A stretch of DNA of 32,000 bases from an uncultured Planctomycetaceae bacterium (GCA_964395825.1 CAYNCM010000007.1:10514-42513); one strand, 5' to 3'; shown: positions 5,771 to 23,695, counted from the first letter of the stretch. Program-made: numbers and translations. Notes: generated by a model from the sequence alone, not told the origin.

Positions 5771-6895
5771 TCAGATGGGCTTGTCGTATATCCGCCAGGT
5801 TCTGGTGATGTCGAGTCCGGCCCGGCGGAGGCTGCCGCAGGCCAGGCCGTTCGATTCGAGCACCCACGAAAACTCCGCCGTCCGGATGCCCCAGTCGACC
5901 GCCGGCTGAGCCAGGCTGCTCATCATCAGCAGCACCAGCCCCGTGCGCTGGTAATCGGGCATGACCGTCGTCGCCAGCGCCCGCAGGTTGGTCAGCTTCC
6001 GCCGCCGGCCGAGCAGCGAGAGAAACCCGAACGGCAACAGCCGACCGTCGATCCGCCGGATCAGCGGGTTGTAATCGAGGATGTAGAACAGCGCGCCGAT
6101 CGTTTTGCCGTCGACCTCGGCGTAGGCGGTGAACTCGGGTACGATCAGGTGTCGCAGATCGCGGGCGATGTGGCGGACCTCCGATGCCGACAGCGGCACG
6201 AACCCCCACGTGTGCTCCAGCGAACGGTTGTAGATTTCCAGGTAGGTCATCACGTCGCGCAGGAAGTGCCGCCGATCCAGCGGGCGAATCATCAGGTTCG
6301 GCGTATCGAGGGCGCGGCGCACCGGCTCGCCGTACTTCTCGATCAGTCCGGGCAGCATGTCGATGTGCCCGGTGAACGCCAGAAGGTTCTGTGCCCCCGC
6401 GTAGCCGCACGCTTCGACCAGTTGCCGGTAGTACGGCTTGTGGTAGGGCATCATGAACGCCGACGGCGAGTCGAAACCTTCAACCAGCAGGCCGCACTCG
6501 TAATTCTGACTGGGATTCACCGGCCCGCGCACGGCGGTCTGCCCGCGCTCGGCCAGCCAGCGCTCGCCGGCGTCGAACAAGGCGCGGGCGCTGTCGACAT
6601 CCTCCTCGCACTCGAAGAACCCAAAGAACCCGCGCTGTTCGTTGTGCGTGTGGTTGTGGGCACGGTTGACGATCGCGCTGATCCGTCCGGTGATGCGCCC
6701 ATCGCGCTCAGCGATAAACGTCTGCGCCTCGGCCTGGTCGTAGAACGGATGCGACGCATAGCCGAGCAACTGGCGATGGCTGGCCAGAATCGGCGGGGTC
6801 CAGTGGGGATCATCGCGATACAGCCGCCAGGGCAGGTGAATGAAGCGGCGGCGGTCGGATCGGGATTGGACGGGCCGGACGGCTGGACGGGTCAT
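5771..6895 (-). CDS. GNAT-fold N-acyltransferase-like protein (~374 aa), translationally coupled to the upstream FAAL-ACP-AONS gene
   Basis: The ATG at 6893-6895 overlaps the upstream TGA at 6892-6894 (ATGA). The C-terminal half has a GNAT motif-A-like segment (VMPDYQRTGLVLLMM) and the tail SWVLESNGLACGSLRRAGL...RIYDKPI. The N-terminal half (FIHLPWRLYRDDPHWTPPIL...GFFGFFECEED...VRGPVNPSQNYECGLLVEGFD...MPYHKPYYRQLVEACGY) matches a widespread long-GNAT family of unknown substrate, as far as I can recall. Confidence 0.7.
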   Translation of the reverse strand: MTRPAVRPVQSRSDRRRFIHLPWRLYRDDPHWTPPILASHRQLLGYASHPFYDQAEAQTFIAERDGRITGRISAIVNRAHNHTHNEQRGFFGFFECEEDVDSARALFDAGERWLAERGQTAVRGPVNPSQNYECGLLVEGFDSPSAFMMPYHKPYYRQLVEACGYAGAQNLLAFTGHIDMLPGLIEKYGEPVRRALDTPNLMIRPLDRRHFLRDVMTYLEIYNRSLEHTWGFVPLSASEVRHIARDLRHLIVPEFTAYAEVDGKTIGALFYILDYNPLIRRIDGRLLPFGFLSLLGRRRKLTNLRALATTVMPDYQRTGLVLLMMSSLAQPAVDWGIRTAEFSWVLESNGLACGSLRRAGLDITRTWRIYDKPI

Positions 6896-9800
6896 GGTGT
6901 CGGTGCGTTGGCGTCGGCGGTGACGGCGGCAAGGCTCTCGGCGACGGCGTCGACCGTCTCGGCGATTTGCCCGGGCGTGTGGTCGACGGTGACAAAGAAC
7001 CGAAGCCGCGCGGCGTGTTCGGGCACGGCGGGATGGAGAATCGGCGAAACGTTGATGCCCCGCTCGGCCAGGGCAGCGGTCAATCGCAACGCGGTCAGCG
7101 AACGGCCAACCATCACCGGCACGACCGGCGTGTCAACCGGCGTGCCGATGTCGAGCCGGCGCTCGACGGCCAGGCGGCGGAACAACCCGAACCGCTCGGA
7201 CAGCGTCGCCACGCGCTGCGGTTCGGCGTGCAACAGGCGCAGGGCCGCACACGCGGCGGCGGCGTTCGGCGGCGACATGCCCACGCTGTACACGAATCCC
7301 GGGGCGGTGTATTTCAGGTATTCGACCAGCGCCTCGGAGCCGGCGATGTAACCGCCGCAACTGCCCAGCGCCTTGCTCAGCGTGCCCATCCAGATGTCCA
7401 CCTCGCGCGAATCGATGCCGAATTGCTCCGCCGAGCCTCGCCCGGTTTGACCAACCGTGCCCATGGCGTGGGCTTCGTCGACCAGCAGCAGAGCATGGTG
7501 GCGATGCTTGAGTTCGACAAAGCGCGGCAGGTCGGGCATGTCGCCGTCCATCGAGTACACGCCCTCAATCGCGATCAGCACGCGGCGATACTGCCGGCGC
7601 ACCGCGGTGAGCATTTCATCGAGCGCCCGGTAATCGTTATGGGCGAATGTCCGCCGCGCCGCGCCCGAGAGCATCGCGCCCTGGATGATGCTGTTGTGGG
7701 CCAGGGCGTCGTGGACGACCAGGTCGCGCTGGTCGAGCAGGTGGCCGATCGTGGTGACGTTCGTGGCGTGGCCGCTGACGAAGGCAAGCGCCGCGTCCAC
7801 GCCGTAGTGTTCGGCCAGCTCGCGCTCCAGTTCGCCATGCACGGTCTTCTCGCCGAACACCAGGCGACTGGCGTTGCTGCTGGTGCCGTAGCGATCAATC
7901 GCTTGCTTGGCGGCCTCGATGACCGGTTCGCAATGGGCCAGGCCGAGGTAGTCGTAACTGCAGAAGTTGATCATCGCCTGGCCGTCGATGATCTGCCGCT
8001 TCTCGGTAAGACCCTCGTGCACGCGGAAGTAGGGATTGGCCTGGCCCATCGCGCCCAGGTGGCGCTGCAGTGAGCCGTACTCGGCGAAGCGCTCGATGCG
8101 GTAGTGCTCAGGCGGAACCCTGCCGTTGCGCCGCGCGGTGCGTCGGCGGGCGTCGGACAGGTGCCGCTCGACCGCTCGGGCCAGGTCGCCGCAGGTGTAC
8201 GCCTCGGCGACCGCTTCGTCGGGCACGGGCGCGTCGAGCGTCTTTTCCAATAGCGCCACCAGTTCCAGCCGTTGCAGCGAGTCGAGGCCCAGCGCCGCCA
8301 GCGGCGTGTCGGGGTCGATGCGCCCGGCGGCCGGTCCGGCCAGCTCGCGCGCGTGACCCATCACCAGATCGAGCGCGGCGCCGGCCTGCGCGGGCTTGGA
8401 CGCCGCCCCGGTCGGCCCGGCGGGCCAGTTCAACCGCTGGGCGATCACGTTCAATTCATCGTCGGCCAGCAAACGGGCGCAGGCCCGGCGCTGCACCTTG
8501 CCGCTGGTGGTGCGCGGCACGGTGCGCCCGCGGACGAGCACCACGCCGTCGAGCGCCAGATCATGCCGTTCGGCCACGGCGCGGGTGATCGCGTCGATCA
8601 CCTCACTGAAATCATCGTGGCCGTTCCGCTCGACTTCGTGGACCAGCACGATGCGCTGGGCGCCGTCGATGTCGGCGCTGAACGCCGCGCCGTCGCCCCC
8701 GGCCAGTAAGTTGTGGCTGTTGCGGGCGGTCTGCTCGATGTCGTGGGGATAATGGTTCACCCCGCGCACGATGATCAGATCCTTCAGCCGACCGGTGCAG
8801 AACAGTTCGCCGTCACGCATCAGGCCCAGGTCGCCGGTGCGCAGGAACGGGCCATCGCCGTCCGCCAGGCGCGATTCGAACGCGCTTTGCGAATCGTGCG
8901 GCTTGTTGAAGTATCCGGCGGCGACGCTCGGGCCGGCGGTCCAGATTTCCCCGATCCGCCCGTCCGGCAGCGTTTCGTGGGTGTGGGGATCGACAATCAG
9001 CACCCGATGGTCCGGTATCGGTGGTCCGCAGGAAACCAGCCGACGCCCGGCGCCCGAGCCGGCGGCATCGTCGAACGATTCGACGCGCGGTTCGCGCCCG
9101 CCGGCGCCGGTGACCATCAGGGTCGATTCGGCCAGGCCGTAACACGGCAGAAACGCTTGACGCCTGAAACCGCAGTCGGCGAACGCCTCGGCGAAGCGTT
9201 CGAGCGTTTCGGGTCGGATGGGCTCGGCCCCGTTGAATGCGACGTTCCACGAGGACAGGTCGAGCCGCCGCCGATCTTCGGGGCTGATCTTCCGCACGCA
9301 CAGGTCGTAGATGAAGTTCGGCCCGCCGCTGATCGTGCCGCGGTATTGCGAGATCGCCCGCAACCAGCGCAGCGGCCGGGACAGAACCGACATGGGCGGC
9401 AGCACGATGCTCGGTCCGCCGACGTGAATGGTTTGCAGGATCGCCCCGATCAGGCCCATGTCGTGGTACGGCGGCAGCCAGGTGACGCCCACGCCGTCGG
9501 GCGCCGAGCCGAAGGATTGCTCAATGCACGCGGAGTTGTGGGCGAGGTTGTCGTGGGTGACGATGACGCCGCGTGGCGTACCGGTCGAGCCGGAGGTGTA
9601 TTGCAGCATCGCCGGGTCGGTCGGCGCGAGGTCGGGTTGGTGCCATCGGTCGGCCCGGTCCTCGTGGATTGCGTCGGTGGCCAGCCAGGTCAGGTCGAAG
9701 TCGTCGGCGAGATTGGCCGCGCGCTGGGCGAGGGCGTCGGTGGTCAGGGCGATGCGCGGCGCCGCATCGCGGGCGGTGGAACGGAATCGCTCGGCCATGC

Positions 9801-10122
9801 GGTTACGCCGGGGCGGATAGGTGGGCACGGCGGTGATGCCGGCGTACAGGCAGCCGAAGAAGGCGGTGATGAAATCCAGCCCCGGCGCATAGACCAGCAA
9901 CGCCCGTTCGCCCGCCAGGCCGCGCGACTGCAATTCGGCGGCGATCGCCCGGCAGCGCCGGTCCAGTTGTCCGTAGGTCAGTTCCTCCGAAGGCGTCTGC
10001 CCGTCGGTGAGCATGACAAACGCGCGCCGGTCGGCGTGGGCGTCGGCCCAGTGGCGGGCGGTCCGCACGAGATCAGGCCGGGCGGATTGGATGGGCTGGC
10101 GGCCGACGAATGGCACCGGCAA
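6892..10122 (-). CDS. Tridomain fatty acyl-AMP ligase (FAAL) - acyl carrier domain - PLP-dependent alpha-oxoamine synthase (AONS/SPT/BioF family)
   Basis: 1076 aa.
- Adenylation domain, aa 1-~565: FFGCLYAGITAVPTYPP, LQYTSGSTGTPRGV, PPYHDMGL, GEIWTAGPSVAAGY, LRTGDLG, TTSGKVQRR.
- Carrier domain: LGLDSLQRLEL, with Ser615 at codon 8278-8280.
- AONS domain, aa ~680-1065: NFCSYDYLGL, SGHATN, EGVYSMDGD, LLVDEAHAMG, and the PLP-lysine motif GTLSKALG with Lys917 at codon 7372-7374. Confidence 0.9.
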   Translation of the reverse strand: MPVPFVGRQPIQSARPDLVRTARHWADAHADRRAFVMLTDGQTPSEELTYGQLDRRCRAIAAELQSRGLAGERALLVYAPGLDFITAFFGCLYAGITAVPTYPPRRNRMAERFRSTARDAAPRIALTTDALAQRAANLADDFDLTWLATDAIHEDRADRWHQPDLAPTDPAMLQYTSGSTGTPRGVIVTHDNLAHNSACIEQSFGSAPDGVGVTWLPPYHDMGLIGAILQTIHVGGPSIVLPPMSVLSRPLRWLRAISQYRGTISGGPNFIYDLCVRKISPEDRRRLDLSSWNVAFNGAEPIRPETLERFAEAFADCGFRRQAFLPCYGLAESTLMVTGAGGREPRVESFDDAAGSGAGRRLVSCGPPIPDHRVLIVDPHTHETLPDGRIGEIWTAGPSVAAGYFNKPHDSQSAFESRLADGDGPFLRTGDLGLMRDGELFCTGRLKDLIIVRGVNHYPHDIEQTARNSHNLLAGGDGAAFSADIDGAQRIVLVHEVERNGHDDFSEVIDAITRAVAERHDLALDGVVLVRGRTVPRTTSGKVQRRACARLLADDELNVIAQRLNWPAGPTGAASKPAQAGAALDLVMGHARELAGPAAGRIDPDTPLAALGLDSLQRLELVALLEKTLDAPVPDEAVAEAYTCGDLARAVERHLSDARRRTARRNGRVPPEHYRIERFAEYGSLQRHLGAMGQANPYFRVHEGLTEKRQIIDGQAMINFCSYDYLGLAHCEPVIEAAKQAIDRYGTSSNASRLVFGEKTVHGELERELAEHYGVDAALAFVSGHATNVTTIGHLLDQRDLVVHDALAHNSIIQGAMLSGAARRTFAHNDYRALDEMLTAVRRQYRRVLIAIEGVYSMDGDMPDLPRFVELKHRHHALLLVDEAHAMGTVGQTGRGSAEQFGIDSREVDIWMGTLSKALGSCGGYIAGSEALVEYLKYTAPGFVYSVGMSPPNAAAACAALRLLHAEPQRVATLSERFGLFRRLAVERRLDIGTPVDTPVVPVMVGRSLTALRLTAALAERGINVSPILHPAVPEHAARLRFFVTVDHTPGQIAETVDAVAESLAAVTADANAPTP

Positions 10123-10269
10123 TCTCCCTGACCGTCATGCGGGGCGACAGACCGTACGCATCACCCGCCGCCGCGTTACCCATACTGTACGTCAGCGTCC
10201 CATCACGGCCAAGCGCAAAGCATTCGAACGTTCCGGTCCGCATATCCCCGATTGATCCGATGCGGTAGA

Positions 10270-11406
10270 ATGCCCGCCGTGTATCGCATTGCGCTGCGCA
10301 TGTTGTTCGCCGATAAGCTCAAGTACATCGTGCTGGTGTGCGGATTGGCTTTCGCCGTCTTGCTGATCACCCAGCAGTGCGCGATTTTCCTGGGCATTCT
10401 GATCCGCGCCACCGGGCCGCTGCAGAACATCGGCCAGGCCGATATCTGGGTCGCCGGGGAACACACCTACTACATCGACATGGTCCTGCCGATGAACGAT
10501 CGCGACCTGTACCGGGTGCGGGCGGTGCCGGGCGTGCAGTGGGCCGAGCCGTTCTTCTTCTTCAACACCATCGTGCAACTGCCCGACGGGCGTTTCACCG
10601 TGGTGCAGGTGGTGGGGGTGGATCGTCAGACGATGATTGGCCAGCCGCCAAAGGTGCTCACCGGTCGGCTGGACGATCTTCGCATCCCCGATGCGGTGCT
10701 GCTGGACAAGAAGGGCCGGCGGCGTTTGAAGGACATCCAGGTCGGCGACACGCTGCGGCTGAACGACCGCCGCGCGATGGTGGTCGGGTTCTGCAACGCC
10801 AAGAAGGGCCTGCTGTCCAAGGCGCTGATGTACACCACCTACCAGAACGCGATGCGCTTCGTGCCGCTCGGTCGACAACGCATGACCTACATTCTGGTGA
10901 AGGTGAAGGACGGCTGGGACATCGGGCAGATCTCAGCCGACATCAGTCGCATCGAGGGGATCCACGGCTGGACGGCGGACCAGATGCGCCGGCGCAACAT
11001 CGACTTCATCCTGCGGGACACGTCGGTCGGGCTGAACTTCGCGATCATGGTCGGGCTGGGCACGTTCGTGGGGCTGGTGGTGTCGATGGCCACGTTCAAC
11101 CAGTTCACCAACGACAACCTGCCGCATTACGCGGTGCTCAAGGCGATGGGGGCGCGATCGCGCACGCTGATTGGCATGGTGGTGGTCCAGTCGATGACGG
11201 TGGGGCTGATCGGTTACGGGCTGGGCGTGGGCTTGGCGGCGATCTTCACCCGCACCGTGCGCAACCAGGCCGATGAACTGGTCGCCTACATCCCCTGGCA
11301 ACTGCTGGTCGTGGCGCTGGTGCCGATGCTGCTATGCGTCAGCCTCGGAGCGTTCGTGGCGCTGAGGCGGGTGTTGCGACTCGATCCGGCGACGGTGTTC
11401 GCATGA
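10270..11406 (+). CDS. ABC exporter permease, FtsX-domain MacB/DevC type
   Basis: An N-terminal TM helix (KYIVLVCGLAFAVLLI) is followed by a ~230-aa extracytoplasmic domain. Three C-terminal TM helices carry the FtsX-like segment (HYAVLKAMGARSRTLIGMVVVQSMTVGLIGYGLGVGL). Start taken at ATG 10270; TTG 10252 is an alternative. The stop overlaps the ATPase start (ATGA at 11403-11406). Confidence 0.8.
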   Translation: MPAVYRIALRMLFADKLKYIVLVCGLAFAVLLITQQCAIFLGILIRATGPLQNIGQADIWVAGEHTYYIDMVLPMNDRDLYRVRAVPGVQWAEPFFFFNTIVQLPDGRFTVVQVVGVDRQTMIGQPPKVLTGRLDDLRIPDAVLLDKKGRRRLKDIQVGDTLRLNDRRAMVVGFCNAKKGLLSKALMYTTYQNAMRFVPLGRQRMTYILVKVKDGWDIGQISADISRIEGIHGWTADQMRRRNIDFILRDTSVGLNFAIMVGLGTFVGLVVSMATFNQFTNDNLPHYAVLKAMGARSRTLIGMVVVQSMTVGLIGYGLGVGLAAIFTRTVRNQADELVAYIPWQLLVVALVPMLLCVSLGAFVALRRVLRLDPATVFA

Positions 11407-12161
11407 ACCCGATGACCAACCATAATCCGCTGGTGCGCCTGCGCGGCGTGCACAAGACGTTCGGCGAAGGCCGCGCGGCCGTCCACGCGCTGCGCGGCGT
11501 CGACCTCGACGTCAACGCCGGGGAACTGGTCATGCTCATGGGCCCCAGCGGTTGCGGCAAGACCACGCTCATCTCCATCATCTCCGGCGTGCTCAGCCCG
11601 TCGAATGGCGAAGTCGAAGCGTTCGGCTTCCGCTGGACGAACCTCAACGAAGACCGCAAAGCCCTGCGCCGGGCGCAGTACATCGGTTACGTGTTCCAAC
11701 AGTTCCACCTGGTGCCGCAGCTTTCGGCCCTGGAGAACGTGGCCGTGCCGCTGCTGATCCGCCGGGTGAAGCGTGACGAGGCGCTGAAGCGTTCAGCCCG
11801 GGCGCTGGGCGATGTGGGCCTGGGCGATCGCCTGGACGATCCGCCTCGCCAACTCAGCGGCGGAATGCAGCAACGCGTCAGCGTGGCCCGGGCCCTGGTC
11901 GGCCGACCGCGGCTGCTGGTCTGCGATGAGCCGACCGCCAACCTCGATGCGGACAACGGCCAGGCGGTGATGGAACTGCTCCGACGGGCCAGCAAGGACA
12001 CCGATCACGCCGGCCACGCCTGCGCGGTGATCGTGGTCACCCACGACGCCCGCACCGAGGAATTCGCCGACCGCATCGAATTCATGGAAGACGGCCGCTT
12101 CGTCGCCGACGCGGTGGGCGTGCATCATGCCACCGCGAAGCCTGCCAACGAAAGCGGGTGA
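11403..12161 (+). CDS. ABC transporter ATP-binding protein (MacB/LolD/DevA-like)
   Basis: Walker A GPSGCGKTT, Q-loop FQQFHL, signature LSGGMQQRV, Walker B LLVCDEPT and the H-loop VVTHD are all present. The ATG at 11403 overlaps the permease stop. Confidence 0.9.
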   Translation: MNPMTNHNPLVRLRGVHKTFGEGRAAVHALRGVDLDVNAGELVMLMGPSGCGKTTLISIISGVLSPSNGEVEAFGFRWTNLNEDRKALRRAQYIGYVFQQFHLVPQLSALENVAVPLLIRRVKRDEALKRSARALGDVGLGDRLDDPPRQLSGGMQQRVSVARALVGRPRLLVCDEPTANLDADNGQAVMELLRRASKDTDHAGHACAVIVVTHDARTEEFADRIEFMEDGRFVADAVGVHHATAKPANESG

Positions 12162-12201
12162 CGCTGTTCGCGAACTCGGCAACCAAGACGGGAATCGGAT
12201 C

Positions 12202-13245
12202 ATGATCAAATGGCTCAGCATTCTGTTGGCGATTGGCGGCCTGGTACTCGGGCTGGTGGTGGTCATCACCACGACCACCCGCCCGCCGGAGATCGAACCG
12301 GCCGGTCCACCGTCGATCAACCCCTTCCCCCGAGGCATCGCGGCCACCGGACTCATCGAGGCGGCCAGCCGAAACCTCGAACTGGGCCCCGCCGAACCGG
12401 GAACCGTGGCCGAGGTGTTCGTGCAGGTCAACGATTCAGTCACCGACGACCAGGCGCTGTTCCGCCTGGACAGCCGCGCCCTGGAGGCCGAGCGGCTGCG
12501 CGCCGTTGCCGCCGGGAAGATCGCCCGGGCGCGGCTCGATCGGCTCCAGGCCGCGCCACGCGCCGAGGATCTCGCTCCCCTCGTCGCCGCGGTCGATCGC
12601 GCCCAGGCGAAGTACGATGACGCCAAGCGGGAATACGAACAGGCCCAACAGGTCTACGCCCAGCGGGCGGCGGGCAGCGCCGAGGTGGCCCATCGCAAGA
12701 ACGCCATGCTTGCGGCCAAGGCGGTGCTCGACCAGGCCCAGGCCGAACACGACCGCCTCGCCGCCGGCGCCTGGAAGTACGACCTGGCCGTGGCCGAGGC
12801 GTCGCTCGAAGAAGCCTACGCCGCCGTTCGGGCCATCGAAATGCGCATCGAACGCATGACCGTGCGCTCGCCGGTCGACGGCATCGTGCTGCGCCGTGAA
12901 GTCGAACCGGGCGAGTTTGTCGCGGTCGGCTCACCCACGCCGGCCATGGTGGTCGGCGACTTAAGCGCCCTGCACGTGCGGGCCCAGGTCGATGAAGAAG
13001 ACGCCGGCCAACTGGTCGAAGGCGCCGAGGCGGTCGGCATGATCCGCGGGCCCGACCGCCAGCGCGTACCGCTCGAACCACTGCGCATCGAACCCATGGC
13101 CGTGCCCAAGCAGCAACTGGCCAACTCGCCGATCGAACTGGTCGACACCCGCGTGGTCCAGGTGATCTACCGCGTCGAAGGCGACCCCGGCATCCGCCTG
13201 TACCCCGGCCAACTGATCGATGTGTTCATCAGCACCCAGCCCTAG
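12202..13245 (+). CDS. HlyD/DevB-type membrane fusion (periplasmic adaptor) protein
   Basis: Start at ATG 12202 gives an N-terminal anchor (MIKWLSILLAIGGLVLGLVVVI). A lipoyl-like half-motif follows (GTVAEVFVQVNDSVTDDQALFRLD), then a long Ala-rich coiled-coil hairpin. The second lipoyl half and beta-barrel follow (VRSPVDGIVLRREVEPGEFV...LHVRAQVDEEDAGQL). Confidence 0.8.
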   Translation: MIKWLSILLAIGGLVLGLVVVITTTTRPPEIEPAGPPSINPFPRGIAATGLIEAASRNLELGPAEPGTVAEVFVQVNDSVTDDQALFRLDSRALEAERLRAVAAGKIARARLDRLQAAPRAEDLAPLVAAVDRAQAKYDDAKREYEQAQQVYAQRAAGSAEVAHRKNAMLAAKAVLDQAQAEHDRLAAGAWKYDLAVAEASLEEAYAAVRAIEMRIERMTVRSPVDGIVLRREVEPGEFVAVGSPTPAMVVGDLSALHVRAQVDEEDAGQLVEGAEAVGMIRGPDRQRVPLEPLRIEPMAVPKQQLANSPIELVDTRVVQVIYRVEGDPGIRLYPGQLIDVFISTQP

Positions 13246-13419: not shown

Positions 13420-14625
13420 TCAGCCACCCGGAACCGCGACCTGCCCTGCGCCGTAGCCCAGCCGTGCGAAGGCGAACGCCCATTCTTCGCCAATGCGGTT
13501 GATCGTCGCGGCGTCGAGGCGATGGGTGTTCTTGCGGTAATCGCGCCGGGCATTGAGGTGTTGCTCGATCGCCGGCCGGGCGGGCTGGAAGTCGCCGAGG
13601 TCGAGTTTCTCGTAAATCCCCTGCAACTGGCCCAGCGGGTCGCGCTCCAGATCCTCGTAACGCAGTTCGACGAGGTGGCCGGCGGGGATCAGCCCGCGGG
13701 TGTCGAAGTAGCGATGCATGACGGTGCGGTACTGACTGAACACCTGTTCGCGGATGTCCGCGACCCAGGCGCATTGCAGGCCGAGCCGTTCGACCATTCG
13801 GCAGCGCATGCGCAGGGTGGAGGCGAACACGTCGAACGGATCGCGCTGAATGTGAATGAAGCGGGCCTCCGGAAACAGTTCGAGCAGTTGTCGAATGCGG
13901 GCGGTGTTCGCCGGATTCTTCAGCACCAGCCGCCGGCCGTCGCGGGCCTTGGTGATGGATTTGAGGTAGCGCACGAAATCGCGCTGCCACCGCGCCCGCT
14001 CCTCGTCAGTCAGTCCCTCGAACATCACCGCCCGGCGGAAGTGGGCCATGGCGTGGCGCGGGAAGTAGAAGCCGTGGTAGTATGATACGTCGCCGAGCAC
14101 GGCCATGGCGGCCTCTTCCTCGAACGGGGCGTCCATGTCCAGGGCGATCTGGTCCATCGGGCGCGTCGACGGAATCGCCCAGCCGAACAGGTAACGCAGG
14201 TACCAGCCGGCGAAGATCGACTCGGGTGCCAGGGCCTGCCACATGGACACGTATCCGAAGCGTTCATCGCGGCTGAGCAGTTCGTGCAGCCAGGTGGTGC
14301 CGCTGCGCCAGTGGCCGATGATGAAAACCGGCGGGTGCTTGATCTCGACCCGGTCGAGGGTCGGTACGAAACGCAGACGATGATCGAGCCGCGTCAACAC
14401 CCCCGCCGCCGAGTGGACACTGATCGTCATCGCCCGGCCGAACGCATCGCGACCGATCGGCCCGTACCGGTGAAGCAGCCGAATCCAGTGAACCATCGAC
14501 GTGGCGCACATCAAATGCATCAGCCCGCGACCGGGACGGATCCGATCGTCATCAGGTGGTGCGGCGGATTCGGGCGAACTGGTTCGGCACACGGCGGACA
14601 GTTTCGGTTCCGTCCGAAAAGGCAT
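13420..14625 (-). CDS. PAPS-dependent sulfotransferase family protein (start codon uncertain)
   Basis: 5'-phosphosulfate-binding loop PPVFIIGHWRSGTTWLHELL is present. The downstream 3'-PB-like region is LVLKNPANTARIRQLLELFPEARFIHIQRDPFDV. The N-terminal region has the layout of a bacterial Sulfotransfer_3-like family. The first ~35 codons abut an IS relic and may not be coding; alternative ATGs are at 14520 and 14496. Confidence 0.8.
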   Translation of the reverse strand: MPFRTEPKLSAVCRTSSPESAAPPDDDRIRPGRGLMHLMCATSMVHWIRLLHRYGPIGRDAFGRAMTISVHSAAGVLTRLDHRLRFVPTLDRVEIKHPPVFIIGHWRSGTTWLHELLSRDERFGYVSMWQALAPESIFAGWYLRYLFGWAIPSTRPMDQIALDMDAPFEEEAAMAVLGDVSYYHGFYFPRHAMAHFRRAVMFEGLTDEERARWQRDFVRYLKSITKARDGRRLVLKNPANTARIRQLLELFPEARFIHIQRDPFDVFASTLRMRCRMVERLGLQCAWVADIREQVFSQYRTVMHRYFDTRGLIPAGHLVELRYEDLERDPLGQLQGIYEKLDLGDFQPARPAIEQHLNARRDYRKNTHRLDAATINRIGEEWAFAFARLGYGAGQVAVPGG

Positions 14626-15093: not shown

Positions 15094-16701
15094 ATGTGGG
15101 GTCAACCCGGGTTTGGAATCGAGTCGGCCATGGCGGCCGGCGGAGCGGGCGGGGGCGGCAAGCCCGGCGCGGGGCCGGTGATCTTCGCGGCAGTAGTGCT
15201 GATGTTCGCATCGCACGGCCCGGCATGGGCGGATGCCGGCTCGTCGGTCCAGGCCGCCCGCACCGAAGCGCCCGTGGCTGTGGCCGGCCTCACCGCGCCG
15301 GGCGACCGGTCGCGCGACGCGGTGATCGAGTCGTTGCAGCGCGAGATGTCGCTGTTGCGCCGCGAGGTCAGGGAGCTTCGGGCCGAGCGGAATCGCTCGT
15401 GGCTCAACGAGCGCCGGGCGGCGGAGGTCAAGGCCCTGGTGCGCCAAGTGATCGCCGACGCCGAGACCCGCGCCAGTCTGCTGGACAGCGAACTGCTGGC
15501 CGGCCACAACGGCAAGCACTTCTTTCTGGCCAGCGCCGACGGCCGGTTCCTGATGACACTTAAGGGCCAGGCCCAGGTCCGTTACATCGCCAACTTCGCC
15601 GACGACGGCGCGACCACCGCCGCCAACTTCGACGAGCAGATGACCGGCTTCCAGTTCCGGCGGCTGAAGCTGAAGTTCGCCGGCCACGCCTTCGACCCCA
15701 GGCTCAGCTACAAGATCACCCTCGCCAGCACCCGCGACCACAACGAGGTCTATCTGGAAGAAGCGTTGATCGGTTATGAACTGGCGGACAACCTGGCCCT
15801 CGCCGGCGGACGCACCAAGGCCCCGTTCCTGCGGGAAGAGCTGATCAGTTCATCGAAGCAATTGACGGTCGAGCGATCGCTGGTCAACGAATCGTTCACC
15901 GCGGGCTTCGTGGAAGGCCTGGTGGTGCGGTGGCAGCCCTGCGAAGCGGTGAAGCTGGCCGCGGCGCTGACCGACGGCGCCGGGTCGGGTGAGGAAACGG
16001 TCGCCGCGGGCGGCGCGGGGGCGGACTGGAACGCGGCGGACGTGGATTTCGCTTTGACGGCAAGGCTGGACGTGAAGCTCGCCGGCGACTGGGGCCAGTG
16101 GAAAGACACCAGCGCCGGGTCGGGCGATCAGATGGGCCTGTTCGTGGGCGCGGCGTTGCATTACCAGAAAACGGAAACGGGCTTCGATGCCACGTCGCTC
16201 ATTCCGCCGGGCGCGCCGAACCTTGCCGATGACGTGGTGCTGTGGACGGTTGACGGTTCGCTGGAGATCCTTGGCCTTGGTGTGTACGCGGCGGTGATGG
16301 GCATGCACACCGAAGCGCCGAACAACGCCGGCGTCCTGTTCGTCAGCGGTCAGCCGGAGGATCTGAATCACTACGGCTTCGTGATTCAGGCCGGCTACAT
16401 GGTCATCCCCGACACGCTGGAGCCGTTCGTGCGCTACGAGCATCTGCTGATCGACGACCAGGTGCTGCCGGCGGTGGGCGGGGTGAGCCAGGAAGACGAC
16501 CCGAACCTGCTGACGGTGGGGTTCAACTACTACGTGCACAAGCACGGGGCAAAGTTCACGGCGGATCTGGTTTACGCCTTCCAGTCGCTGGGTGGGGCGG
16601 GCGCGGCATTCGGGGTCAGCGACGGATTGGGCCTGCGGGCGGACGAGGTGGACCAGGACGGTCAACTCGCCTTGCGGGCGCAGATGCAACTGCTTTTCTA
16701 A
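15094..16701 (+). CDS. Phosphate-selective porin O/P (OprO/OprP) family outer-membrane protein with N-terminal coiled-coil extension
   Basis: AGGAG lies 7 nt before ATG 15094. The signal-like segment is PVIFAAVVLMFASHGPAWA. Porin_O_P-type strands are present: FFLASADGRFLMTLKGQAQVRYIANF, FQFRRLKLKFAGHAFDPRLSYKITL, VYLEEALIGYELADNLALAGGRTKAPF. The C-terminus ends in an aromatic residue (LRAQMQLLF). It sits next to the phoBR-pst genes. Confidence 0.8.
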   Translation: MWGQPGFGIESAMAAGGAGGGGKPGAGPVIFAAVVLMFASHGPAWADAGSSVQAARTEAPVAVAGLTAPGDRSRDAVIESLQREMSLLRREVRELRAERNRSWLNERRAAEVKALVRQVIADAETRASLLDSELLAGHNGKHFFLASADGRFLMTLKGQAQVRYIANFADDGATTAANFDEQMTGFQFRRLKLKFAGHAFDPRLSYKITLASTRDHNEVYLEEALIGYELADNLALAGGRTKAPFLREELISSSKQLTVERSLVNESFTAGFVEGLVVRWQPCEAVKLAAALTDGAGSGEETVAAGGAGADWNAADVDFALTARLDVKLAGDWGQWKDTSAGSGDQMGLFVGAALHYQKTETGFDATSLIPPGAPNLADDVVLWTVDGSLEILGLGVYAAVMGMHTEAPNNAGVLFVSGQPEDLNHYGFVIQAGYMVIPDTLEPFVRYEHLLIDDQVLPAVGGVSQEDDPNLLTVGFNYYVHKHGAKFTADLVYAFQSLGGAGAAFGVSDGLGLRADEVDQDGQLALRAQMQLLF

Positions 16702-16761
16702 CGGAAAGGGCCGATAACGCGGCGCAAACCGCGATTACTCACCGGACCATCATCTTTTCAG

Positions 16762-16798
16762 GGGCGATCAGGCATAAACGGGCCTGGTCGCCTTTTCT
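16762..16798 (+). terminator. Rho-independent terminator after the porin gene
   Basis: 11-bp stem GGCGATCAGGC (16763-16773) pairs with GCCTGGTCGCC (16782-16792), including one G-U pair. The loop is 8 nt (ATAAACGG). It is followed by TTTTCT. Confidence 0.7.
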
Positions 16799-16804
16799 AA
16801 AAAG

Positions 16805-16837
16805 TAATATATTCTTAACGGAATCTGAAACCGGTTA
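16805..16837 (+). promoter_or_regulatory. Candidate Pho box upstream of phoB (autoregulation)
   Basis: Phased 11-mers TAATATATTCT / TAACGGAATCT / GAAACCGGTTA. The middle unit matches the first pstS unit TAACGGTTTCT at 9 of 11 positions. It lies in an AT-rich patch just after the porin terminator. Confidence 0.35.
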
Positions 16838-16904
16838 GATCATCATGACGCGTCCACTGGCCAAACCCGTACGGAAGTTCACCGACATTCCGCGTGAGCC
16901 CGCC

Positions 16905-17669
16905 ATGATGAACGCGTCCAAACCGTCGCCCGCCCGGGCCCGCCGCACCCATGCCCTGTCTTCAGACGCCGCCGCCACCCGCGCGACGATCATGGTCGTC
17001 GAAGACGAGCAGGACCTGCAGGACCTGCTGCACTACAACCTGGAGCGCGAAGGCTACAACGTCGCCGCGGCCACGCGGGGCGAAGAGGCGCTTAAGTCAA
17101 TCCGCAAGAAGCGGCCGGACATGGTGCTGCTGGATCTGATGCTGCCGGGCATCGACGGGCTGGAAGTCTGCCGGGCTTTGCGGTCGGACGAAGCGACGCG
17201 CGATCTGCCGATCGTGATGCTCACCGCCAAGGGCGAAGAGGCGGACGTGGTGACGGGGCTGGAACTGGGCGCCGATGATTACATCACCAAGCCGTTCAGC
17301 CCACGGGTGCTGATCGCGCGGATCAAGGCGGTGCTGCGGCGACGGGGCGGAACGGACGGGACGGGCGAGGAAGATGAACCGTTGCGGGTGGGAACGCTGA
17401 TGGTGGACCCGGGCCGCTACGAGGTGCGGGTGGAAGACAAGGCGGTCTCGCTGACGCGGACGGAATTCGGCATCTTGCAGTTGCTGATGCGCCGGCCGGG
17501 GCGCGTGTTCACCCGCAGCCAGATCGTCTCGGAAGTGCAGGGGGCCAACGTCGCGGTGACGGATCGTTCGGTGGACGTGCACATCGTGTCGTTACGGCGT
17601 AAGCTGGGTTCGGCCGGTCAACTGATCGAGACGGTGCGGGGCGTGGGGTACCGGCTGGAGGACAGCTAG
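16905..17669 (+). CDS. phoB: Phosphate regulon response regulator, OmpR/PhoB family
   Basis: Receiver domain: IMVVEDEQDL, PDMVLLDLMLPGIDG, PIVMLTAKG. Winged-helix output: LTRTEFGILQLLMRRPGRVFTRSQI...VDVHIVSLRRKL...IETVRGVGYRL. Start is ambiguous (ATG at 16845, 16905 or 16992). I chose 16905 because the candidate Pho box and promoter overlap 16845, and 16992 would clip strand beta-1. Confidence 0.85.
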   Translation: MMNASKPSPARARRTHALSSDAAATRATIMVVEDEQDLQDLLHYNLEREGYNVAAATRGEEALKSIRKKRPDMVLLDLMLPGIDGLEVCRALRSDEATRDLPIVMLTAKGEEADVVTGLELGADDYITKPFSPRVLIARIKAVLRRRGGTDGTGEEDEPLRVGTLMVDPGRYEVRVEDKAVSLTRTEFGILQLLMRRPGRVFTRSQIVSEVQGANVAVTDRSVDVHIVSLRRKLGSAGQLIETVRGVGYRLEDS

Positions 17670-17673
17670 GCTG

Positions 17674-19500
17674 ATGGGTCGCCGCCTGATCTGGAAAGTC
17701 GCGCCCGGCTATATCGTCGTCATTGCTCTGAGCACGCTGGTGGTGGCCTACTTGGCGGGCCGCTCGGTCGGAACGTTCTTTGAACATCACGTCGACCGCG
17801 AACTGACGAGCAAGGCCCACCTGATCGCGCGTCAGGTTCGGCCGATGCTCGAACGGGCGGACGACCACGCCGTCGCCGAGTTGTGCAATGCCCTGGCGGA
17901 CGAAGCGGGGGCCCGGATCACGGTGATCGCCCCGGACGGACGGGTGCTGGGCGATACGCATGAAGATGCCCGGGGGATGGACAACCACGCCCGCCGCCCG
18001 GAAGTGATCGAGGCCATGGCCCGCGGCGAAGGGCGCAACACCCGATTCAGCGACACGCTCGAACAGCGGATGAAGTACGTGGCGATGAAGCTGGTCGGCG
18101 AGGGTGATCAACCGCTGGCGGTGGTGCGCACGGCGATGAGCACGGCGAACATGGAAGCGGCGCTGGGCAGCGTGCGGCGGCGGATCGCGATCGGCGGCGC
18201 GGTGCTGGTGGTGCTGGCGGGCCTCGTGACGATCCTCGTGTTCACCCGGTACATCAGCGGACCGCTGCGGCGACTGCAGCGGGGCGCCTACCGCTTCGCC
18301 GCCGGCGACCTCAGCGGCGGACTGCCCATGTCGGATGTCCGCGAGATCAGCGACCTGGCCGAATCACTCAACGGCATGGCCCGGCAACTCGACGAGAAAA
18401 TCCGCACCATCACACGGGAATCCACCGAACGCCAGACGGTGCTGGCGAGCATGATCGAAGGCGTGTTCGCCGTCGACGCCGAAGAACGCGTGCTGACGAT
18501 GAACGACGCGGCGGCGGACCTGTTCCAACTCGACGCGCAGGCGATCGTCGGCCGGCGCATTTTTGAGGTCGCCCGGCACAGCGAACTGCAGGAACTGGTC
18601 ACCGACACCCTGGCCAGCGACAAACCGATCGAGCGCGACCTGAGCGTGCGAACCGGCGGACGCCAGCGCCACCTGCAGGCCCACGGCGCTCCGCTGCGGG
18701 AAACGACCGGCACCAGCGCCGGGGCGGTGATCGTGGTCCACGACGTGACGCGGATTCACGAACTGGAACAGGTACGGCGGCAGTTCGTGGCCAACGTCTC
18801 GCACGAATTGAAAACGCCCATCTCGGCGATTCACGCGGCGGTGGAAACGCTGCTCGATCCACGCGGCGGGTCGGATGATGATCGCCGCCGGTTCCTGGGC
18901 ATGATCGAGCGGCAGGCGGCGAGGCTGAACGCGATCGTCGAAGACCTGCTCGCCCTGGCCCGGCTGGAACAGCAGGCCGAGGATCGCCAGATCGACCGGC
19001 GCCAGCACGAACTGCTGCCCATCCTCCGCGGGGCGGTGGAAACCTGCCAGGCCGGCGCCCAGGCGCGGGACATCAAGCTCACGGTGCGCGGCGATCCGCA
19101 CCTCAGCGCCCCGATCAACCCCACGCTGCTGAGCCAGGCGGTGGTGAACCTGCTGGACAATGCGATCAAGTATTGCGGGTCGGGCTCGTCGGTGACGGTC
19201 AAGTGCGAACGGGAGGATGGGGAGCTGATCCTCTCGGTCCGCGACGACGGGCCGGGCATCGCCGCCGAGCACCTGGGCCGGCTGTTCGAGCGGTTCTACC
19301 GGGTCGACCGCGGTCGCAGCCGGGAGCTGGGCGGGACGGGTCTGGGTCTGGCGATCGTCAAGCACGTGGCCCAGGCGCACGGGGGCCAGGTGTCGGTGAA
19401 AAGCCGGGTCGGGCGGGGTTCGACGTTCCGCATTCATTTGCCGCGCGAGAAGCGCGACGCCCAGCCGGCCACGCCGGCGGACGTGGCGACGCCATCCTGA
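17674..19500 (+). CDS. phoR: Phosphate regulon sensor histidine kinase
   Basis: It starts 4 nt after the phoB stop. Domain order is TM helix, extracytoplasmic segment, second TM, HAMP, then a PAS-like region. HisKA H-box is FVANVSHELKTPISAI. HATPase_c motifs are NLLDNAIKY, RDDGPGI and GGTGLGLAIVKH. Confidence 0.85.
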   Translation: MGRRLIWKVAPGYIVVIALSTLVVAYLAGRSVGTFFEHHVDRELTSKAHLIARQVRPMLERADDHAVAELCNALADEAGARITVIAPDGRVLGDTHEDARGMDNHARRPEVIEAMARGEGRNTRFSDTLEQRMKYVAMKLVGEGDQPLAVVRTAMSTANMEAALGSVRRRIAIGGAVLVVLAGLVTILVFTRYISGPLRRLQRGAYRFAAGDLSGGLPMSDVREISDLAESLNGMARQLDEKIRTITRESTERQTVLASMIEGVFAVDAEERVLTMNDAAADLFQLDAQAIVGRRIFEVARHSELQELVTDTLASDKPIERDLSVRTGGRQRHLQAHGAPLRETTGTSAGAVIVVHDVTRIHELEQVRRQFVANVSHELKTPISAIHAAVETLLDPRGGSDDDRRRFLGMIERQAARLNAIVEDLLALARLEQQAEDRQIDRRQHELLPILRGAVETCQAGAQARDIKLTVRGDPHLSAPINPTLLSQAVVNLLDNAIKYCGSGSSVTVKCEREDGELILSVRDDGPGIAAEHLGRLFERFYRVDRGRSRELGGTGLGLAIVKHVAQAHGGQVSVKSRVGRGSTFRIHLPREKRDAQPATPADVATPS

Positions 19501-19519
19501 AGCGGGACGGGGGCCGCGC

Positions 19520-19563
19520 TAACGGTTTCTTAACATTTCATTAACATTGCACTAATCAGCCCG
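19520..19563 (+). promoter_or_regulatory. Candidate Pho-box array upstream of pstS
   Basis: Four exactly 11-bp-phased units: TAACGGTTTCT / TAACATTTCAT / TAACATTGCAC / TAATCAGCCCG. They start at 19520, 19531, 19542 and 19553, about 50 nt upstream of the pstS ATG. The architecture is the same as PhoB/PhoP/SphR direct-repeat boxes. Confidence 0.6.
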
Positions 19564-19613
19564 CCGTACCTTGCGCGGCGACCCGACACCCCAAACACCG
19601 AAGGGAACGAGAC

Positions 19614-20741
19614 ATGAACAGGCGGCAGAGACTCTATCGAATGGGCCGGTTGACGGTGATGGTCGTGCTGACCGCCGTGGTGCTGGCCGGCTGCGGCCGG
19701 GAAGGGGGCCAGGGCGGCGATGAAAGCCAGCCCCAGGCTCGCGGGGCCGATCGCTCGGGCACCATCATCACCGGCGCCGGGGCGACGTTCCCGTATCCGC
19801 TCTACAGCAAGTGGGCCAACACCTATCACCAGCTCAACGGGACGCAACTGAACTACCAGTCGATCGGGTCGGGCGGCGGGATCGCCCAGATCAAGGCCAA
19901 GACCGTCGACTTCGGGGCGTCGGACGCGCCGCTGACCGCCGATCAGCTCGACGAGGCCGGCCTGATGCAGTTTCCCATGGCCATGGGCGGCGTGTGCCCG
20001 GTAGTCAACCTCGAAGGCATCAACGCCAACCAGTTGCAGGTTCCCGATGACGTGCTGGCCGGCATCTTCCTCGGCAAGATCACCAAGTGGAACGACCCGG
20101 CCCTGGTCGAGGCGAACCCCGGGGCCAACCTGCCCGACCGCGACATCACCGTGGTACACCGGGCGGACGGTTCGGGCACAACGTGGATCTTCACCAACTT
20201 CCTGTCGAAGATCTCGAACCCGTGGAAGAACCAGGTGGGCAACGCCAAGGCGGTAAACTGGCCCACGGGCGTGGGGGGCAAGGGCAACGAAGGGGTGGCG
20301 GCGTACGTCAGCCGCATCAAGGGCGCGATCGGTTACGTGGAATTCGCCTACGCGCTTGAGAACGACATGACCACGGTCAAGCTGCGCAACGTGGCGGGCC
20401 ACTACGTCGAGCCGACCATCGAAAGCTTCCAGGCCGCCGCGGCCAACGCCGACTGGCCCCACGCGCCGGGCTTCTACATGGTGCTGACCGGCCAGCCGGG
20501 CGAAGGAAGCTGGCCGATCACCGGCGCCACGTTCATCCTGATGTACACCGAACAGAAGGACCCGGCCCATGCGACGCAGGTGCTGGACTTCTTCGACTGG
20601 TGCTACAACCACGGCGACGAGGCGGCGGTGAAACTGCACTACGTGCCCATGCCCGACCGCGTGGTGAAACTCGTGCAGGACCGGTGGGCGAACGAGATGG
20701 CCGGGCCGAACGGCGAAAGCATCTGGCCGCCGGCCGAGTGA
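19614..20741 (+). CDS. pstS: Phosphate ABC transporter substrate-binding lipoprotein
   Basis: Lipobox VVLAGC is present. PstS hallmarks: TGAGATFPYPLYSKW, NYQSIGSGGGI, DFGASDAPL, VVHRADGSGTT. Confidence 0.9.
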   Translation: MNRRQRLYRMGRLTVMVVLTAVVLAGCGREGGQGGDESQPQARGADRSGTIITGAGATFPYPLYSKWANTYHQLNGTQLNYQSIGSGGGIAQIKAKTVDFGASDAPLTADQLDEAGLMQFPMAMGGVCPVVNLEGINANQLQVPDDVLAGIFLGKITKWNDPALVEANPGANLPDRDITVVHRADGSGTTWIFTNFLSKISNPWKNQVGNAKAVNWPTGVGGKGNEGVAAYVSRIKGAIGYVEFAYALENDMTTVKLRNVAGHYVEPTIESFQAAAANADWPHAPGFYMVLTGQPGEGSWPITGATFILMYTEQKDPAHATQVLDFFDWCYNHGDEAAVKLHYVPMPDRVVKLVQDRWANEMAGPNGESIWPPAE

Positions 20742-20790
20742 CCCGGCCGCGGTTTGTGTGAAATAGGTGAGCGTTCCAGACACCCCATCT

Positions 20791-20815
20791 GGCGCCCGTA
20801 CAATGTGCGGGCGTC
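20791..20815 (+). promoter_or_regulatory. Stable stem-loop in the pstS-pstC intergenic region
   Basis: GGCGCCCG (20791-20798) pairs with CGGGCGTC (20808-20815), including one G-U pair. The loop is 9 nt. No U-tract follows, so this is more likely an mRNA stability or processing element than a full terminator. Confidence 0.45.
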
Positions 20816-20858
20816 GGTCCGTTGAGACCGCTGTTCCGCTCGCCGCCGGGAATCGACG

Positions 20859-21842
20859 ATGACCACCACGCCCGCCCAACTTCCCGCCGCCGCTGTCGAC
20901 GGGGGGCAATTCGGCCGAAGCCGCGCCTCCCATCGCGTGGGCGACAGGGTGCTGCACGTGATCGTCATCCTGTGCGCCTTGGCGGTGTTCGGGCTGATCT
21001 TCGGCATCTTCATCCAGCTTGTGGTCGATTCGCGGTTGGCTTTGTCGACGTTCGGGCTCAAGTTCCTCTACAGCCAGGAATGGGACCCGGCGTTCGGGCA
21101 GTACGGGGCGCTGTCGAGCATCTACGGCACGCTGCTGTCGACGTTCATCGCGATGCTGATCGCGGTTCCGCTGAGTCTGGTGATCGCGCTGTTCCTGGTG
21201 GAACTGGCGCCGCCTCGGTTCAGCGCGATCGTCGGCGGGGCGATCGAGCTGCTGGCGGCGATCCCCAGCATCATCTACGGCATGTGGGGGCTGTTCGTCC
21301 TGGCGCCGTGGCTGGCCGATCACGTGCAACCGGCCATTCAAAAACACACGTTCGGCCTGCCGCTGTTTGCCGGGCCGCCCATGGGCATCGGCATGCTCAC
21401 CGCCGGCCTGGTGCTGGCGCTGATGATCCTGCCGTTCATGACGGCGATCACGCGGGACATCTTCCGCATGACGCCAGCCCACATCCGCGAATCGAGCTAC
21501 GGCATCGGCGCGACCACCTGGGAAACCGCCTGGAAGGTCACCATCCCCTTCGGTATCCGGGGCATTCTCGGCGGGGCGTTTCTGGGCCTCGGCCGGGCCC
21601 TGGGCGAGACGATGGCGGTCACCTTCGTCATCGGCAACACGCACAACATCTCGCTGAGCCTGTTCAGGCCCGGCAACACGATCAGCTCCACCCTGGCCAA
21701 CGAGTTCGCCGAGGCGTCGGACGAGCTGTACCTCAGTTCGCTGATCGCGCTGGGGCTGGTGCTGATGGTGGTGACGCTGATAGTGCAGACCGCCGCGCAG
21801 CTCTGGCTTCGCCGGATGCGTCGCAAAGCGGAGGGCAAGTGA
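20859..21842 (+). CDS. pstC: Phosphate ABC transporter permease PstC
   Basis: Multi-TM protein. PstC-type N-terminal region: FGLKFLYSQEWDP...GALSSIYGTLLSTFIAMLIAVPLSL. EAA-loop region: RESSYGIGATTWETAWKVTIP. Confidence 0.9.
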   Translation: MTTTPAQLPAAAVDGGQFGRSRASHRVGDRVLHVIVILCALAVFGLIFGIFIQLVVDSRLALSTFGLKFLYSQEWDPAFGQYGALSSIYGTLLSTFIAMLIAVPLSLVIALFLVELAPPRFSAIVGGAIELLAAIPSIIYGMWGLFVLAPWLADHVQPAIQKHTFGLPLFAGPPMGIGMLTAGLVLALMILPFMTAITRDIFRMTPAHIRESSYGIGATTWETAWKVTIPFGIRGILGGAFLGLGRALGETMAVTFVIGNTHNISLSLFRPGNTISSTLANEFAEASDELYLSSLIALGLVLMVVTLIVQTAAQLWLRRMRRKAEGK

Positions 21843-23592: not shown

Positions 23593-23695
23593 ACCAGGCC
23601 GGATCGACGAGGCGTCCCTTCCACCGGCGCGATGCACGAACGCCGCGCCGGGGATCCGGTACAATGTCACACCACCCGCTCAAAGGGCTGCGAAC

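Follow-up and report, generated by a model that had tools for sequence, protein, structure and literature searches.

What does a bacterium make with one polypeptide that is predicted to activate a fatty acid, tether it and condense it with an amino acid? The question is raised by a gene (6892..10122, minus strand) in a 32,000-nucleotide stretch of DNA from an uncultured Planctomycetaceae bacterium (GCA_964395825.1 CAYNCM010000007.1:10514-42513), referred to below as the window. The gene fuses a fatty acyl-AMP ligase (FAAL), a carrier domain and an alpha-oxoamine synthase (AONS), a pyridoxal phosphate (PLP) dependent enzyme. An earlier note on this DNA had described the product as a self-contained synthase of long-chain amino-ketones. 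Our comparative analysis suggests, with reasonable though not high confidence, that the fusion is the first stage of bacterial ceramide synthesis, carried on one polypeptide. The description as self-contained is too strong, since the protein needs a phosphopantetheinyl transferase and would work in a pathway together with a translationally coupled N-acyltransferase.

The open reading frame (ORF) encodes 1076 residues and begins with a TTG codon. The database copy of the protein (P0001) has 1074 residues and starts two codons downstream of the TTG. Homologues align only from about residue 16, which leaves an uncertainty of a few codons in the position of the start; residue numbers given here count from the TTG. 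Four Pfam domains score above their gathering thresholds: AMP-binding (residues 23-405, E 3.7e-67), AMP-dom_DIP2-like, a C-terminal subdomain of the FAAL/DIP2 type (448-561), PP-binding (PF00550, 591-651, E 3.5e-11) and Aminotran_1_2 (PF00155, 717-1059, E 7.9e-46, 157.3 bits against a cut-off of 19.7). Such E-values rule out a chance ORF. On the minus strand, the FAAL domain (residues 23-561) occupies 8440..10056, the carrier domain 8170..8352 and the AONS domain 6946..7974.

The sequence motifs that the earlier note had quoted are all present, and the two active site codons that it had named are in frame. The adenylation motifs are LQYTSGSTGTPRGV (A3, residues 173-186), TGDLG (A8, 429-433) and SGKVQRR (A10, 540-546). 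The carrier motif LGLDSL (611-616) contains the phosphopantetheine attachment site Ser615 (codon 8278-8280), and the AONS motif GTLSKALG (913-920) contains the Schiff-base Lys917 (codon 7372-7374). When 18 homologues from several phyla are aligned, the core residues of A3, A8 and A10 are invariant, and so are L611, G612, D614, S615 and L616 of the carrier (L613 is not among the invariant residues). The same holds for the Ser-Lys pair of the PLP site and for the His, Asp, His and Arg residues that hold PLP and the substrate carboxylate. Judged by this alignment, all three domains of the fusion keep intact sets of catalytic residues.

For the N-terminal half, NCBIfam models of FAAL subfamilies rank first, above the acyl-CoA ligase models. 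The cut-offs of the curated FAAL models are not reached (409.5 against 775 for PRK05850, 372 against 600 for PRK09192); PRK05691 aligns to residues 18-662 with 565 bits. Among solved structures, the best match is the FAAL of a polyketide synthase (PKS), 7r7e, with 539 bits and about 50% identity over the N-terminal 660 residues. It is followed by a Legionella FAAL (3kxw, 422 bits), FadD23 and FadD32 (about 290-310) and the E. coli FAAL (3pbk, 254). The FAAL-specific insertion, which the earlier note had proposed to look for, is present in a short form. The segment from YGLAE to SCG has 39 residues in the fusion, compared with 25 in E. coli FadD and 51-52 in EcFAAL and in the protein of locus L010. 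The insertion is thus 14 residues longer than in FadD (relatives have about 26 more) and about 12 residues below the usual length. Taken together, these matches support the assignment of the N-terminal domain as a FAAL. The first 660 residues look like a FAAL-carrier loading didomain of the kind found in PKSs and nonribosomal peptide synthetases (NRPSs), and it is the presence of the fused carrier that suggests transfer of the acyl-AMP to the carrier and not to CoA.

The solved structures nearest to the AONS domain are serine palmitoyltransferase (SPT) of S. multivorum (215 bits), human SPTLC2 (205), and ThAOS and Kbl (203-204). Residues equivalent to His159, Asp231, His234, Thr262, Ser264, Lys265 and Arg390 of Sphingomonas SPT are all conserved, and the residues that bind PLP and carboxylate in SPT are also kept in five further fusions that were inspected. 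The equivalent of SPT Arg378 was considered as a marker and discarded: it is not conserved in the fusion, yet SPTs do not conserve it either, so that it is uninformative. The residue preceding the Schiff-base lysine is Ser in the fusions, in bacterial SPTs and in ThAOS, Thr in SPTLC2, and Gly in BioF and Kbl, which is a weak hint of an SPT-type activity.

The position of the AONS domain was assessed in a small bootstrapped neighbor-joining (NJ) tree, which contains the AONS domains of 16 fusions from nine lineages and has neither aminolevulinate synthase (ALAS) nor CqsA among its references. The fusion domains are monophyletic in 100/100 bootstraps, and their clade is sister to human SPTLC2 in 90/100. 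It joins BioF in 4/100 and Kbl in 0/100, so that the firm clustering with one of these enzymes that the earlier note had envisaged is not seen. The equivalog cut-offs for Kbl and ALAS are likewise not reached by the AONS domain. By these comparisons, the AONS domain of the fusions is a distinct clade that lies outside the curated Spt families. Within the tree, the fusion from a metagenome-assembled genome (MAG) of Betaproteobacteria pairs with a Phycisphaerales fusion in 100/100 bootstraps (L032, L041), and a Sideroxyarcus sequence is among the closest database matches to the window protein. Both observations suggest that the fusion has moved horizontally between phyla.

The gene downstream of the fusion provides a second line of evidence. 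It encodes a 374-residue protein (5771..6895, minus strand), and its start overlaps the fusion stop by 4 nucleotides (ATGA). The gene is translationally coupled to the fusion and belongs to the same operon. The protein has a marginal Pfam match to GNAT, and belongs to a large, well conserved family. Three informative relatives were found by tblastn against plasmid records (E 1e-61 to 1e-82), and all align over the full length. The Rubrobacter homologue (35% identity) is sandwiched in a trio of AONS, N-acetyltransferase and reductase genes. E. coli YghO (32%) is encoded next to a cluster with an AONS gene that passes a curated Spt model (600/500) and carries the RefSeq name spt. The third relative is the N-acetyltransferase of the Sphingomonas parapaucimobilis spt cluster (29.5% over 383 columns, E 6e-61). 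This cluster contains genes for a CerR-like protein, an acyl carrier protein (ACP), SPT and, further on, LptF, LptG, a desaturase and the N-acetyltransferase, the last 6 kb from spt.

The sphingomonad relative connects the partner to an enzyme of ceramide synthesis. According to the supplement of a study of Caulobacter, Swit_3905 and Swit_3906 are orthologues of LptF2 and LptG2, and Swit_3908 is the orthologue of the Caulobacter bacterial ceramide synthase bCerS, CC_1154 (PMC11324152). The order of LptF, LptG, one further gene and the N-acetyltransferase in S. parapaucimobilis matches that of Swit_3905, 3906 and 3908. It is by synteny and homology, through the sphingomonad orthologue, that the partner can be tied to CC_1154, and we refer to it as a putative tandem-GNAT N-acyltransferase of the bCerS/YghO family. 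A structure model of the partner (predicted local distance difference test score, pLDDT, 81.7) has a tandem-GNAT fold. Its best fold matches are tandem-GNAT proteins, among them several amine N-acetyltransferases (glucosamine N-acetyltransferase, MshD). The predicted fold is compatible with N-acylation of 3-ketosphinganine or sphinganine, but does not prove it. A search of the PDB with the 374-residue sequence gave no matches, and longer members of the GNAT family (529-638 residues) have no recognisable extra domain that would provide a Rosetta-stone link.

On the other side of the fusion, a divergent intergenic region (10123..10251, defined by reading the sequence) separates the operon from three plus-strand genes identified with Pfam and NCBIfam. 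They encode a DevC-like permease (10252-11406), a DevA-like ATPase (11334-12161) and a DevB/HlyD-like adaptor (12127-13245). The DevCAB-type genes (10252..13245) encode a probable lipid exporter. The divergent layout is kept in three other loci (L004, L005, L006). In the closest relatives, whose fusions are 61-64% identical to that of the window, the coupled bCerS-like gene is kept, and so are the divergent devC-devA-devB genes, which show 62-89% identity.

The FAAL-carrier-AONS architecture is widespread. It was found in 120/120 homologues among the matches listed. A scan with one genome per species gave more than 600 matches; the 80 that were retained, on which the neighbourhood counts below are based, are essentially all the fusion, at full length where the contig allows, so that its presence is confirmed for at least 80 species. 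The carriers belong mostly to the Planctomycetota (Pirellulales, Thermoguttaceae, Tepidisphaeraceae, Phycisphaerales and Isosphaeraceae), with Blastopirellula among the taxa recovered. Further carriers are found in Acidobacteriota, Gemmatimonadota, Rokubacteria, Desulfobacterota, Betaproteobacteria, Lentisphaerae and Nostocaceae.

Several lineages combine the fusion with genes expected in a ceramide pathway. In all three Tepidisphaeraceae loci, it heads a series of genes for, in this order, a PAP2 protein, an ATP-binding cassette (ABC) ATPase, an ABC-2 permease, a bCerS-like and a CerR-like protein. In Gemmatimonadota, a CerR-like gene is located directly upstream in three of three loci, a bCerS-like gene follows downstream in both contigs that extend past the fusion, and a PAP2 gene is found in between. 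Rokubacteria have bCerS-like and CerR-like genes divergent from the fusion, and Bryobacteraceae have PAP2 and CerR-like genes. A CerR-like gene adjoins the fusion in locus L001 as well. Aligned over the full length of the Sphingomonas CerR-like protein, the CerR-like proteins of the fusion loci show 31% identity to it. In Nostocaceae, a gene for a classical short-chain dehydrogenase/reductase (SDR) is present within 1 kb downstream (13182-14021 in L064, where it overlaps the fusion end, and 14113-14985 in L066). In type, this SDR corresponds to the eukaryotic 3-ketosphinganine reductase and not to CerR. In a Desulfobulbaceae genome and a deltaproteobacterial MAG, the fusion is followed by a radical SAM/SPASM gene (13394-14338 in L045; a homologue at 13505-14452 in L069) and then by an ABC-2 permease gene. 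In Pirellulales-type loci, the commonest neighbour is a convergent gene on the downstream side for a protein of about 400-450 residues (L002 14091-15497, and 15 others); the L002 protein matches PF07585 (BBP7, a putative beta-barrel porin).

The recurring set thus comprises a predicted 3-keto-producing AONS, a bCerS-family acyltransferase, a ketoreductase, a PAP2 enzyme of head-group type and a lipid exporter. It matches the components of ceramide synthesis and export in Caulobacter (PMC11324152). With the intact catalytic residues, the separation of the AONS domain from BioF and Kbl, the bCerS-type partner and the CerR-like, SDR and PAP2 genes of relatives, it lends support to the proposal of the earlier note that the fusion acts in cis as a synthase of a 2-amino-3-keto long-chain base.

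The following sequence of reactions can be proposed, in which the substrates (which amino acid, and which chain length), the product, the succession of the reactions and the part played by the exporter are all inferred. The FAAL domain would adenylate a free long-chain fatty acid and load it, without a CoA intermediate, onto the phosphopantetheine arm at Ser615 of the neighbouring carrier. The amino acid that the PLP enzyme (Lys917) binds as an external aldimine would be a small one, L-serine being the most likely, and the aldimine would attack the carrier-bound thioester. The decarboxylative Claisen condensation would free the holo-carrier and yield a 2-amino-3-keto long-chain base similar to 3-ketosphinganine. 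The coupled tandem-GNAT partner would then N-acylate the base to a lipid of the 3-oxo-ceramide type. A ketoreductase encoded elsewhere in the genome would reduce this lipid; relatives suggest a CerR-like enzyme, and Nostocaceae a classical SDR. The divergent DevCAB-type exporter would carry the lipid outward. Serine is favoured because PAP2 partners need a C1 hydroxyl group, and because of the Ser-Lys motif. In view of the 1-deoxyceramides found in the environment, alanine is also a plausible substrate.

The proposed chemistry has a close precedent. The Spt of Caulobacter prefers acyl-AcpR, made by the acyl-ACP synthetase AasR (PMC9386255, PMC11324152). AasR (CC_1165), AcpR (CC_1163), Spt (CC_1162), bCerS (CC_1154) and CerR (CC_1164) follow the same logic as proposed here, with AMP-forming loading of a dedicated carrier, condensation by a PLP-dependent AONS, and the action of a bCerS-type acyltransferase and a reductase (PMC9386255, PMC11324152). 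In contrast to the fusion, where three activities share one polypeptide, the Caulobacter activities reside on separate proteins, and no cerR gene is linked to the fusion in this window. The Caulobacter gene order aasR-cerR-acpR-spt is mirrored in E. coli by the FAAL-epimerase-ACP-spt cluster adjoining yghO. The unfused clusters of E. coli (yghO / FAAL-epimerase-ACP-spt / lptG lptF) and S. parapaucimobilis contain the same protein families as the fusion loci, among them an N-acyltransferase of the YghO/bCerS type and, close by, a lipid exporter. They differ in that their genes are separate, their exporter is an LptFG paralogue instead of DevCAB, and their AONS passes curated Spt models. The E. 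coli cluster (L087, NZ_MG591698.1 5488-21425) is present in 4068/5426 complete E. coli genomes at 80% coverage or more, and our literature searches found neither a paper on its product nor a functional paper on yghO.

The fusion is probably an independent assembly and not a simple merger of the proteobacterial trio, because its FAAL is nearer to PKS-loading FAALs (50% identity) than to the AasR-type enzyme of E. coli (35%), and because its AONS forms a separate clade. Sequence identity of the AONS domain to proteobacterial Spts (Sphingomonas SPT, E. coli cluster enzyme) is only 30-32%, and that of the carrier domain to the stand-alone ACP encoded in the E. coli spt cluster is 25%.

The earlier note had not recognised a characterised pathway, but the novelty is smaller than it supposed. 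The A-CP-PLP2 (AOS) layout was catalogued in 2013 by Milano et al. for proteins of Blastopirellula marina (A3ZWL3), Microscilla marina (A1ZVW4) and Synechococcus PCC 7002 (B1XHP8), with SPT as the closest structural template and with product and cluster type listed as unknown (PMC3870968). These proteins have the same domain layout as the fusion, and the catalogue makes no link to bCerS, CerR or ceramide synthesis. The same chemistry on separate AasR, AcpR and Spt proteins is established in Caulobacter (PMC9386255, PMC11324152). A study of the Black Sea reports Spt-like genes in 138 Planctomycetota MAGs and does not mention the fusion (PMC11334938). Full-text literature searches found no biochemical characterisation of the fusion. 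Pathway logic and architecture are already known; the function suggested here for a large clade, and its role in Planctomycetota lipids, are put forward as proposals.

Delivery of an acyl group to an AONS in cis is known from natural product synthesis. In SxtA of the saxitoxin pathway, the AONS is fed by an adjacent carrier. In PigH and RedN of prodiginine synthesis, the AONS similarly takes its acyl substrate in cis from the adjacent carrier and thereby releases the chain (PMC3870968). These enzymes act on polyketide or pyrrolyl intermediates and have ketosynthase, acyltransferase or methyltransferase domains or extra carriers, whereas the fusion has no extension module and would receive a plain fatty acid loaded by its FAAL. 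FAAL-ACP loading didomains (PKS FAAL 7r7e, Legionella 3kxw) represent the same FAAL-carrier unit; in the fusion, an AONS takes the place that a ketosynthase or condensation domain would have downstream of it. A further variation is seen on plasmid pLlyPCM2298_1 of Legionella lytica (L088, 7857-12728). A protein of 970 residues fuses the FAAL-carrier didomain, 36-39% identical to that of the window, to a phosphosulfolactate synthase, and has a stand-alone AONS and a 2-phosphosulfolactate phosphatase as its neighbours. The arrangement resembles a sulfonolipid-type version of the fusion scheme.

Several observations weigh against the assignment to ceramide synthesis. The AONS domain is only 30-37% identical to any of the reference AONS enzymes assembled, and it fails three curated Spt models (NF047599 260/500, NF047600 300/640, NF047603 202/670). 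This test is calibrated, because E. coli spt (600/500) and Sphingomonas SPT (833/670) pass the same models; the Rubrobacter Spt-like enzyme fails as well (444/640). The top NCBIfam model for the domain is the generic bioF model TIGR00858 (370 bits, below the cut-off of 426.45), which means little since bona fide SPTs score 321-334 bits on it. The fusion clade joins the whole SPT set in only 21/100 bootstraps, in a tree that is small and free of ALAS and CqsA. The window (32 kb) contains no reductase gene, CerR-like ones included, and no gene for a PAP2 protein. Most Pirellulales loci place the fusion alone among housekeeping genes (KsgA, enolase, BamB-like), and a bCerS-like or CerR-like gene lies within 10 kb of the fusion in only about 14 of the 80 species loci. 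Finally, to our knowledge the function of the bCerS/YghO family is proven in Caulobacter only, and we know of no demonstration of sphingolipids in cultured Planctomycetes, a point on which the literature was not searched exhaustively.

Alternatively, the product may be a long-chain amino-ketone or amino-alcohol other than a membrane ceramide. It could be a signal of the CqsA/LqsA type, an alanine-derived 1-deoxy base or a vitroprocine-like metabolite, and the GNAT protein would then merely N-acetylate it or tailor it otherwise. We regard this as unlikely, yet it is the alternative that survives best. It is favoured by the similarity of the FAAL-carrier half to PKS/NRPS loading didomains (565 bits for PRK05691, 539 for 7r7e) and by gene contexts that differ between phyla, such as the radical SAM/SPASM gene of Desulfobulbaceae. 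The placement of the AONS clade outside all curated Spt models and the abundance of 1-deoxyceramides in the Black Sea (PMC11334938) point in the same direction. However, with the CqsA model NF005526 the AONS domain reaches only 155 of the 428 bits required, and the partner belongs to the bCerS family rather than being a small GNAT. PAP2 and CerR-like genes recur beside the fusion, the Pirellulales gene is found in conserved housekeeping surroundings and not in a variable biosynthetic island, and the family spans more than 600 species genomes.

A more far-reaching version of the ceramide assignment takes other genes of the window into account. A complete phosphate-starvation (Pho) cluster (15094-24367) encodes an OprO/P-like phosphate-selective porin, a PhoB-like regulator, a PhoR-like kinase, PstS, PstCA, PstB and PhoU. 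Some 5 kb separate it from the lipid operon, and in the gap lie the DevCAB exporter genes and a lipid-type sulfotransferase gene (Sulfotransfer_3, 13420..14625, minus strand, Pfam E 8e-34), the latter 3.3 kb from the fusion. The fused family could be the main entry to sphingolipid-type lipids in Planctomycetota and other poorly cultured phyla, starting from free fatty acids, and in this organism it might make a phosphorus-free, possibly sulfated ceramide-like lipid under phosphate starvation. We consider this combination quite improbable. The sulfotransferase gene is absent from all 86 related loci, so that it is not conserved with the fusion; its closest homologues occur in unrelated contexts, and it was rejected as an established component of the system. 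The homologues of the sulfotransferase include many archaeal proteins (Thermoplasmatota) and some distant ones whose names refer to Stf3, the lipid sulfotransferase of mycobacteria.

The sulfotransferase and the sulfatases of the window could also be taken to suggest that the amino acid is cysteate or another sulfonated one, and the product a sulfonolipid base of the capnine type. The L. lytica plasmid, with its didomain fused to phosphosulfolactate synthase near a stand-alone AONS and a phosphosulfolactate phosphatase, would fit such a role. This possibility is nevertheless very unlikely. The solved cysteate-C-fatty acyltransferase 28eh matches the AONS domain worse than SPT (152 versus 215 bits), and the Legionella AONS is the most distant of the references (29% identity), with Ala instead of Ser before the lysine. 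There are no cysteate or sulfolactate genes in the window, and the lack of conservation of the sulfotransferase with the fusion applies here too. Least credible of all is a pimelate-activating BioF that makes 8-amino-7-oxononanoate for biotin, for although TIGR00858 is the top model and many database copies carry the name 8-amino-7-oxononanoate synthase, the score is below the cut-off of a generic model, the grouping with BioF is as rare as stated above, Ser and not Gly precedes the lysine, the adenylation domain matches long-chain FAALs, the window has no bio genes, and the partner is a bCerS-type acyltransferase.

If the assignment to ceramide synthesis holds, potential producers of sphingoid bases could be recognised by one gene in Planctomycetota, Gemmatimonadota, Acidobacteriota, Rokubacteria, some cyanobacteria and further groups. 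Searches for Spt built on proteobacterial or Bacteroidetes sequences score the fusion poorly, and it is annotated as BioF or as a generic 'aminotransferase'. Producers could then be assigned to many orphan ceramides and 1-deoxyceramides of environmental lipidomes. As a natural fusion, it is also Rosetta-stone evidence that bacterial Spt-type enzymes natively draw on acyl groups loaded onto a carrier and not on acyl-CoA. In practical terms, it would provide a compact one-protein catalyst that converts a free fatty acid and an amino acid to a long-chain amino-ketone. Should the product be sulfated after all, the locus would offer a genetic handle on the orphan sulfated 1-deoxyceramides of anoxic seawater.

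No sigma-70-like site was found in the intergenic region between the operon and the exporter genes, and scans for promoters, terminators, Rfam families and tRNAs gave nothing of note. Between the genes for trigger factor and a GHL10 protein, a small plus-strand ORF with transposase-type helix-turn-helix domains (1361-1720) and an adjacent unassigned ORF (together 1361-2133) are probably the remnant of an insertion sequence. Beyond the Pho cluster, surface and glycan-related genes (24490-31369) encode a C-type lectin domain protein, an FGE-sulfatase protein, a sulfatase and a Laminin_G_3 protein. The FGE-sulfatase protein ends in a PEP-CTERM motif, and the gene set is typical of Planctomycetota-like genomes.

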